Below are positions 16,454 through 17,062 of a stretch of 64,000 nucleotides of DNA, piece after piece. The DNA comes from Escherichia phage vB_ECOLIGBLB0003. The position numbers were made by a program, and so were the translations under genes. The notes below the pieces were generated by a model that was not told the origin of the DNA, made no database searches, and was given only the letters and a program-made list of their open reading frames with translations. Numbering within the stretch: position 1 is the stretch's first letter; each line of letters opens with the position of its first letter. The stretch is from sequence record PV654517; one strand, written 5' to 3'.

Positions 16454-17062
16454 TTATTTATTACGTGAAAAAGACTGTTCTATCAATTCTGGACACTTTC
16501 GTTCTATCCATTTTCTAGCTTTTTGTGGGCTTATACCTATTATTTTAGCAGCTTTACTAACCCATCCAAATTTAGAATAATCGATTTTAACTAATTCTTC
16601 GTAAATTTCATCAGTTAAAATCTTTTCATTAATATTTACCAGTAAATGATATAATTTATTATCATTAGCAATTTTAATGAATCTTTTATAGTTTCCGCCT
16701 TTACTTAAACCTAATGAAGTAATTGCAGATGATATAGTAGCCGAATTTAATAGTGCGTTTAAAATTTCTTCATCACTAACATTATAACGCTTTTTATTAT
16801 TTTTAATATTTTTACCAGCAAAAGTATCAGTTTGCGAATGGCAATTTGGACATAATAATCTTAAATTTGATTTAAGATGATTTTTGTTATTTCCATCAAT
16901 ATGGTCTAATTGCAGAACAATATGCTTATTTTGCCATTTTGAAATTTTACAAATTGCACACTCATATGGAAAAATATTTTCTTTTATTATTTTGTCTTTT
17001 AGCTTTCCTGTACTAAAATTTGGATGTTTTCCTTCAAAAATTTCAGCTAATTTAGTATCCAT
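16454..17062 (-). CDS. HNH homing endonuclease (Mob-like)
   Basis: ATG at 17062 (ORF-track start 17086 is TTG); HNH/zinc motif CAIC...LQLDHIDGNNKNHLKSNLRLLCPNCH; ends 7 nt upstream of tRNA-Leu 5' end. Confidence 0.75.
   Translation of the reverse strand: MDTKLAEIFEGKHPNFSTGKLKDKIIKENIFPYECAICKISKWQNKHIVLQLDHIDGNNKNHLKSNLRLLCPNCHSQTDTFAGKNIKNNKKRYNVSDEEILNALLNSATISSAITSLGLSKGGNYKRFIKIANDNKLYHLLVNINEKILTDEIYEELVKIDYSKFGWVSKAAKIIGISPQKARKWIERKCPELIEQSFSRNK

Follow-up and report, generated by a model that had tools for sequence, protein, structure and literature searches.

Phage tRNA clusters are now viewed as anti-defense and translation-support loci, and endonuclease genes have been described within several of them. 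The tRNA region of phage T5 encodes the HNH site-specific endonucleases HegA (F-TflIV), F-TflI and F-TflII (Akulenko et al., 2004, as reported in PMC2330249, PMC5714182 and PMC10644984). For SegB of phage T4, the preferred 27-bp site lies wholly inside tRNA-Asn of phage T2L, a gene absent from T4, and SegB homing removes tRNA genes of T2L (PMC2330249). HNH genes are also embedded in the tRNA clusters of mycobacteriophages and in mycobacterial tRNA array units, where they have been proposed as drivers of tRNA repertoire diversity; one-for-one replacement of a tRNA is not described for these genes (PMC6409571, PMC5966550). Finally, T-even phages possess other free-standing HNH homing-type genes with a patchy distribution, namely those for MobA-E of T4 and hef of phage U5. 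Nicking of the target has been reported for MobA-E (PMC13096335; PMC2988022). However, all of these genes occupy other loci (the nrd, gene 39 and alpha-gt regions), and none has been reported in the tRNA cluster (PMC2988022, Table 1).

Here, we analyzed a 64-kb stretch of an Escherichia phage genome (hereafter the window). It belongs to a Tequatrovirus, a T4-like phage, and is collinear with T4 between e.6 and trna.4. An HNH endonuclease gene at the head of its tRNA cluster takes the place of the tRNA-Gln body, and is thus not merely the neighbor of a missing tRNA. Our literature searches found no description of this HNH gene, or of a tRNA-Gln replacement, in T4-like phages. Among the systems described so far, T5 HegA/F-TflIV comes closest in sequence, whereas T4 SegB comes closest in mechanism. 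Like the window gene, hegA is free-standing, lies on the same strand as the surrounding tRNA genes, is polymorphic for presence and absence among relatives, and takes the place of a tRNA gene of which a short stub is left; the two proteins are homologous across the HNH module and a C-terminal HTH motif. On the other hand, T5 belongs to the Demerecviridae and the carrier of our gene to the Straboviridae, HegA has an extra N-terminal region of ∼55 aa, hegA replaces tRNA-Leu(UAA) together with a small ORF rather than tRNA-Gln, and it stands 23 nt after a tRNA, whereas the window gene stands 6 nt before one.

The gene for SegB is likewise a free-standing endonuclease gene in a T-even tRNA cluster and is co-transcribed with the tRNAs, its product targets a tRNA gene that its carrier lacks, and its homing strips tRNA genes from the recipient. 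It differs in having a GIY-YIG fold, in making double-strand breaks with 2-nt 3' overhangs, in lying between tRNA-Ile/Tyr and tRNA-Arg, and in displacing a 1.25-kb block instead of one tRNA body. In addition, SegB homing has been proven experimentally, whereas we infer that of the HNH gene. The HNH gene is an ordinary kind of mobile element rather than a new kind of system, and SegB already shows the same logic experimentally. The HNH genes of mycobacteriophages and mycobacterial arrays share only the HNH core with our protein (∼40–50% identity over ∼70–80 aa). As for hef, which was described together with the Seg-type segH, it reportedly replaces other mobile genes at a fixed locus.

Replacement of tRNA-Gln in the tRNA cluster

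Eight tRNAs were identified by ARAGORN in the window, all on the minus strand, and an Rfam scan of positions 14400–17300 (E ≤ 1) gave the same eight. Their order in the direction of transcription is Leu(UAA), Gly, Pro, Ser, Thr, Ile(CAU), Tyr and Arg, with segB between the last two. tRNA-Leu(UAA) (16361..16447, minus strand) is now the first of the cluster, and the remaining part, from Gly to Arg, occupies 15065..16355 (minus strand) as delimited by ARAGORN, Rfam and comparison with T4. The segB gene (15145..15810, minus strand) encodes a GIY-YIG homing endonuclease (Pfam GIY-YIG, 25.7 bits; threshold, 22.6) and is 96.5% identical to T4 segB. In the T4 record, the gene order is Gln-Leu-Gly-Pro-Ser-Thr-Ile-segB-Arg. 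A first-pass annotation of the window, made from the letters alone, had given the seven leading tRNAs of T4 correctly and had pointed to an HNH endonuclease gene where tRNA-Gln would be expected, to the lack of tRNA-Gln in this region and to the presence of two homing endonuclease families in one tRNA cluster. All of this agrees with our results: ARAGORN detected no tRNA-Gln in the whole 64 kb, the Rfam scan (E ≤ 1) revealed nothing tRNA-like or intron-like between 16448 and 17300, and segB is the second endonuclease gene of the cluster besides the HNH gene.

The HNH gene is a minus-strand ORF that encodes 202 aa (17062–16454; ATG at 17062–17060, stop codon TAA at 16456–16454). An alternative in-frame start, TTG at 17086, would extend the product to 210 aa and was disfavored, since homologs align from the ATG. 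The gap between the stop codon and tRNA-Leu is 6 nt (16453–16448, TATAGC), rather than the 7 nt given in the first-pass annotation. At the same place, T4 and the HNH-less phage PV654520, which is ∼99–100% identical to the window over several kb (99.7–100% from e.8 to tRNA-Leu), have a 97-nt spacer followed by tRNA-Gln and tRNA-Leu. Homology to the tRNA-Gln alleles stops at 17069 (or at 17067 if a T>C change at 17068 is allowed) and restarts at 16450. On the basis of the alignment with T4 and PV654520 and of junction searches, a cassette of 616 bp (16451..17066, minus strand) was inserted in place of nucleotides 10–71 of tRNA-Gln. What is left of the tRNA gene is a 9-nt 5' remnant, TGGGAAT(T/C)A (17067..17075, minus strand), which reads TGGGAATCA here and TGGGAATTA in other carriers, and a 3' remnant AG, which is followed by the 1-nt spacer between Gln and Leu (together AGC; 16448..16450, minus strand). 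The GC content of the cassette is 25.8%, compared with 35.6% for the window. When the long ORFs of the window are considered, 70% of their Gln codons are CAA, and the cost of the cassette is the loss of the phage tRNA that reads this preferred codon.

The HNH protein and its domains

The translated ORF contains both motifs CPNCH and LQLDHIDGNNKNH and begins with a catalytic HNH/zinc-finger module (residues 1–85; 16808..17062, minus strand), in which C35, C38, H54, N66, C71, N73, C74 and H75 are invariant. All elements of the HNH-superfamily core (His-Me finger, beta-beta-alpha-metal) are present, including the catalytic His of the DH motif, the structural Asn and the metal-ligand His/Asn. The zinc-binding CxxC...CxxC pair that flanks the active site (C35, C38, C71 and C74) is a feature of the McrA/T4 endonuclease VII-like subgroup. 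The Pfam HNH model (PF01844) scored 17.3 bits on this ORF, which is under its threshold of 21.4; PHROG HNH families matched the product with E-values of 5e-124 and 2.5e-29, and precomputed PF01844 and PF13392 matches are present in many homologs. GenBank labels the ORF as HNH endonuclease, in relatives as well. The HNH-family similarity noticed in the first-pass annotation is supported, and the protein is a putative nuclease.

Downstream of the nuclease module, the protein has two HTH-like modules. The first (residues 97–134; 16661..16774, minus strand) is putatively DNA binding, comprises AlphaFold helices at 97–105, 110–116 and 121–134, and shows 56% identity to the nearest homologs, compared with 64–80% for the HNH module. 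The second (residues 151–201; 16460..16612, minus strand) is also helical in the AlphaFold model and contains a conserved FGWVSKA..IGISPQK motif; G166, W167 and P179 are invariant, the Pfam matches are weak (HTH_29, P22_Cro and HTH_17), and the module aligns with the C-terminus of T5 HegA. Taken together, the putative DNA-binding modules are 48–60% identical to those of the nearest homologs, so that the nuclease module is the more conserved part, which fits diverging target specificities. The two HTH-like modules that follow the N-terminal zinc-finger nuclease module would presumably read a long asymmetric DNA site. T5 HegA/F-TflIV matched the protein at 35% identity in BLASTP (E = 2e-22, residues 16–184) and at 34.7% over 84% of the query in tblastn (E = 5e-15).

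Distribution of the cassette and a one-sided recombination patch

By using tblastn, we found 63 phage records containing an HNH gene that is at least 95% identical, one copy in each. Each of the two cassette junctions was found in exactly 63 phage records, and the intact arrangement of spacer, tRNA-Gln and tRNA-Leu is kept in 446 records; carriers therefore represent ∼12% (about one in eight) of Tequatrovirus records. Because the number of records with the gene equals that for each junction, the replacement arose once. No record was found in which the cassette and tRNA-Gln occur together, and no Tequatrovirus record was seen with neither of them. None of the 63 carriers has a truncated HNH ORF, and the protein identity is 98.5–100%. 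Carriers differ in their tRNA sets (with or without Tyr, Thr and Lys) as well as in their segB and trna.3 alleles, and tRNA-Gln was absent from all six carrier loci examined despite these differences. Across five carriers, DNA identity to the window was 99.0–99.8% for the HNH gene, compared with 82.6–100% for segB, 78–88% for trna.3 and 95–98.6% for trna.2. All eight tRNAs annotated in the genome of Pu-Krd-SF6 lie within the cluster. In the carrier Escherichia phage BP32, ARAGORN identified an extra tRNA-Lys(UUU) in the cluster region, which is not in the window.

The nearest HNH-less relative differs from the window at the cassette locus only. A SNP map against this relative showed a divergent patch (17095..17676, minus strand) that adjoins the cassette on its trna.2/trna.3 side, with 27 differences in ∼600 bp that thin out by 18104 (∼1 kb), whereas the 2.1 kb on the opposite, tRNA-bearing side contain a single difference. 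The patch is likely a co-conversion tract, that is, a one-sided recombination tract centered on the cassette. Polymorphism, excess conservation and a one-sided patch are what characterizes a homing endonuclease gene that is free-standing and spreading. The tRNA-Gln gene showed no unusual diversity that would hint at escape from cleavage: among the phages compared, its variation is confined to the anticodon stem, and tRNA-Pro, tRNA-Ile(CAU) and tRNA-Arg vary more. It should be noted that record PV654520.1 is named 'Pseudomonas phage vB_PSGBLB0006', is a Tequatrovirus of only 142 kb and gives Pseudomonas aeruginosa as host; either this host assignment or the assembly seems questionable.

Replacement of tRNA genes by related endonucleases

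All of the closest full-length homologs come from T4-like contigs, in which they head the tRNA cluster and lie downstream of trna.2-4 homologs. In a Marfavirus-like contig, a homolog with 68% identity replaces tRNA-Asn directly after tRNA-Gln (L005 2983/3597, corresponding to L008 2984/3074), and in Roskildevirus-like contigs, homologs with 58% identity replace 231 bp that include tRNA-Gln (L006 2886/3588, corresponding to Cronus 1661/1893). T5 hegA stands where hegA-less T5-like phages have a 63-aa ORF and tRNA-Leu(UAA), of which the last 7 nt are kept. Replacement of tRNA genes by an endonuclease of the HegA-like family, polymorphic for presence and absence, is thus seen in four groups (Tequatrovirus, Roskildevirus-like, Marfavirus-like and T5-like phages). 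This family-wide pattern, with T5 hegA included, suggests a general rule for the reshuffling of tRNA repertoires in large phages.

Other tblastn matches included HNH genes of Gordonia and Streptomyces phages that adjoin tRNAs. When IMG/VR was scanned with this protein alone, no close relative emerged, and relatives were collected from this database by an alignment-based scan, in which 80 loci were picked by protein similarity only and the contigs are not phylogenetically independent. Within 2.5 kb, tRNAs were present in 75 of the 80 loci, and all of them were on the same strand in 69. The start of a tRNA lay at most 15 nt from the stop codon in 24 loci, and such tight abutment is only about twofold commoner than for other ORFs in the same arrays. 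When tRNAs at most 50 nt downstream of family members were considered, class II tRNAs (Leu, Tyr and Ser) accounted for 16 of 29 against a background of 24%, with Leu(UAA) as the commonest, in contigs that are not independent of one another. The tRNA-Leu(UAA) genes next to family members do not resemble one another more closely than those located elsewhere (59–74% identity to that of the window); a closer resemblance would have suggested a shared target or a mobile unit composed of the HNH gene and a tRNA.

Several additional observations were made in these arrays. Erwinia phage Cronus (L010) contains a second family member at 4657–5100 (147 aa, 43% identical over the core, E = 3e-20), which is wedged 2–3 nt from tRNA-Leu(UAG) and tRNA-Tyr; phage IT22 (L011) is without this gene, and of its tRNA-Tyr just the initial ∼22 nt are kept. 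Compared with Cronus (L010 2127–2202), the metagenomic Roskildevirus-like contig L006 (3823–3827) lacks exactly tRNA-His, with breakpoints within a few nucleotides of the tRNA ends, and tRNA genes behave as cassettes in the Roskildevirus-like and Cronus arrays. In the Marfavirus-like pair, the tRNAs at L005 2911–2986 and L008 2912–2984 differ by changes that include compensatory ones in the anticodon stem, and the aligned flank of 285 nt is 96% identical; co-conversion from a divergent donor or cleavage resistance could account for these changes. Just after the HNH gene of the former contig, L005 3600–3700 begins with GCGAGACCAAGCTGGTAACG, a sequence similar to the 5' terminus of a tRNA-Leu. 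ARAGORN called no tRNA in this interval, which is partly annotated as a small CDS in AmPh_EK29 and may be a tRNA-like stable RNA.

Proposed mechanism and alternative explanations

On the basis of these results, we think that the ORF is probably a free-standing gene for an HNH homing endonuclease related to T5 HegA/F-TflIV, that a single ancestral event swapped the tRNA-Gln body for the 616-bp cassette, and that the gene presumably homes on the tRNA-Gln allele. During co-infection with a phage that still has tRNA-Gln, the HNH enzyme would nick or cut this allele, and the cut would most probably fall within the tRNA-Gln gene or at its border. The target is placed there because the tRNA-Gln body is the only local sequence absent from carriers, the flanks being shared; since the flanks are near-identical in carriers and non-carriers, the argument for this target is one of absence from carriers only. 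With the carrier as template, recombinational repair would then copy the cassette along with part of the adjoining DNA, inheritance of the cassette would be biased, and the recipient would switch from tRNA-Gln to HNH and lose its tRNA for the preferred Gln codon. Points that weigh against this reading are the Pfam HNH score below its threshold and the ordinary diversity of tRNA-Gln; moreover, the 12% frequency and the high conservation of the cassette could also be explained by ordinary recombination of a recently acquired neutral gene.

The enzyme might instead bind the conserved tRNA-Leu(UAA) or the Gln/Leu junction and cut just upstream. The cassette would then come to lie at the 5' boundary of tRNA-Leu, and the loss of tRNA-Gln would be a side effect of the initial illegitimate insertion. 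No other tRNA of the cluster is as conserved as tRNA-Leu(UAA), which shows at most one difference among the 11 phages compared, T5 hegA replaced a tRNA-Leu(UAA) as well, and both the loci with a tRNA within 15 nt of the stop codon and the excess of Leu, Tyr and Ser (above all Leu(UAA)) downstream of family members point the same way. However, carriers keep an intact tRNA-Leu, so that another route to immunity would be needed, and the closest homologs (68% and 58%) have no tRNA directly downstream. The abutment in IMG/VR is only about twice as frequent as for other ORFs, the contigs behind it are not independent, and the adjoining tRNA-Leu genes are no more alike than the others; we regard such a target as unlikely. 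Quite unlikely in our opinion is that the gene never was, or is no longer, self-mobile but a decaying or domesticated nuclease, acting for example against co-infecting phages or host DNA, with a patchiness that results from ordinary homologous recombination between co-infecting T-even phages. The activity of the protein is itself presumed, some mob and seg genes of T4 are inactive (PMC2988022), T-even genomes are highly mosaic, and the trna.3 and segB alleles vary independently. Against this, the catalytic residues and zinc ligands are all intact and invariant, every carrier has the full-length, nearly identical ORF, conservation of the HNH gene is far above that of its flanks, and the HegA-like family shows replacement at tRNA genes in four phage groups.

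The number of events involved is also relevant. A deletion of tRNA-Gln, either before or after a separate HNH insertion beside it, would have parallels in the precise gain and loss of tRNAs elsewhere, such as the tRNA-His that is absent from the Roskildevirus-like contig and present in Cronus, and in the variable Tyr, Thr and Lys tRNAs of Tequatroviruses. Two unrelated events are nevertheless very unlikely, given that both junctions lie inside the tRNA-Gln gene and leave stubs of 9 and 2 nt, that records with both or neither of the alternatives were not found and the junction counts are 63, 63 and 446, and that the same one-step pattern is seen in three other family members. Group I introns frequently harbor HNH endonuclease genes, and introns do occur in tRNA genes; an intron-encoded HNH gene of the I-HmuI or I-TevIII type was considered as well, in which tRNA-Gln would still be functional as a split gene. 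The probability of this arrangement is practically negligible: ARAGORN and the Rfam models (E ≤ 1) found no tRNA or intron in 16448–17300, and the two stubs are all that remains of tRNA-Gln, so that no anticodon, D arm or T arm is left.

If the HNH enzyme homes on tRNA-Gln as we propose, the locus would be a clean natural case of a selfish element that spreads at the expense of a cargo gene. A second selfish nuclease gene, unrelated to segB and located in the same cluster, removes a tRNA, the one that serves CAA. A wider reading, which we hold tentatively and with somewhat more doubt than conviction, is that HNH endonucleases of the HegA/F-TflIV-like lineage may form a guild specialized on DNA targets in tRNA genes. 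Its members would spread by turning single tRNA genes into copies of themselves, a one-for-one replacement observed in the four phage groups named above, and would be major drivers of change in the tRNA repertoires of phage tRNA arrays. If this is true, HegA-like HNH genes would also erode the tRNAs that phages carry for codon supply or against host anticodon nucleases.

Expression signals

The HNH start codon is separated from the tRNA-Gln stub by just 4 nt. The sequence GGGA at 17074–17071, which derives from the old acceptor stem and lies 8 nt before the ATG, is the sole Shine-Dalgarno-like element and may serve as a weak Shine-Dalgarno sequence. A candidate MotA-type middle promoter (17145..17169, minus strand), read directly from the letters, consists of TGCTTTA (17169–17163), a 12-nt spacer and TATTAT (17150–17145). 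Its columns are invariant in the alignment with T4 and HNH-less relatives, and it fits the T4 middle-promoter consensus, as a consensus match only. The scan for sigma-70 promoters and terminators gave nothing above shuffles. A hairpin in the leader (AAGGGUUCUU / AAGAGCCUUU; 17084..17109, minus strand), which was found by folding and is seen in T4 as well, is inherited from the pre-tRNA-Gln leader. The fold of the leader RNA was not significant against shuffles (z = −0.46), and no convincing masking of the ribosome-binding site could be observed in it. The HNH gene would be transcribed together with the tRNAs, from promoters that formerly drove tRNA-Gln, and translation would start at the ATG that follows the GGGA of the former acceptor stem. 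By processing the 5' end of tRNA-Leu, RNase P would then sever the HNH mRNA 6 nt past the stop codon, and expression would probably be kept low. Such severing would be consistent with the limited expression through transcript processing that was proposed by the authors for SegB and the T5 F-Tfl genes (PMC2330249).

Other features of the region

tRNA-Tyr(GUA) (15857–15943, minus strand) lies between tRNA-Ile(CAU) and segB, where T4 has none, and is present only in some Tequatroviruses. According to a 2026 paper, Septu cleaves tRNA-Tyr, and SegB amplifies the tRNA-segB locus in T6 under Septu pressure (PMC13096335); because of these two findings, the tRNA-Tyr(GUA) of the window may be anti-defense cargo. 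The gene at 15953–16029 (minus strand) was labeled Met(CAT) by ARAGORN, yet it is 100% identical to T4 tRNA-Ile; many relatives in GenBank are also annotated with tRNA-Met. Homologs of the T4 stable RNAs rnaC (14801–14939, minus strand; 98.6%) and rnaD (14946–15063, minus strand; 98.3%) were found, for which there is no Rfam family. Two small ORFs that overlap them (14714–14851 and 14857–14982) are probably spurious.

The window contains no counterpart of T4 e.7 or ipI. The trna.3 homolog (17463–17861, minus strand) is hypervariable in Tequatroviruses, with 78–88% identity over only half of its length, and is absent from Pu-Krd-SF6. A substitution at 17184, not present in the four relatives compared, makes TATAAATG (17177–17184, minus strand) right before the trna.2 stop codon, which is one base off the T4 late-promoter core TATAAATA.
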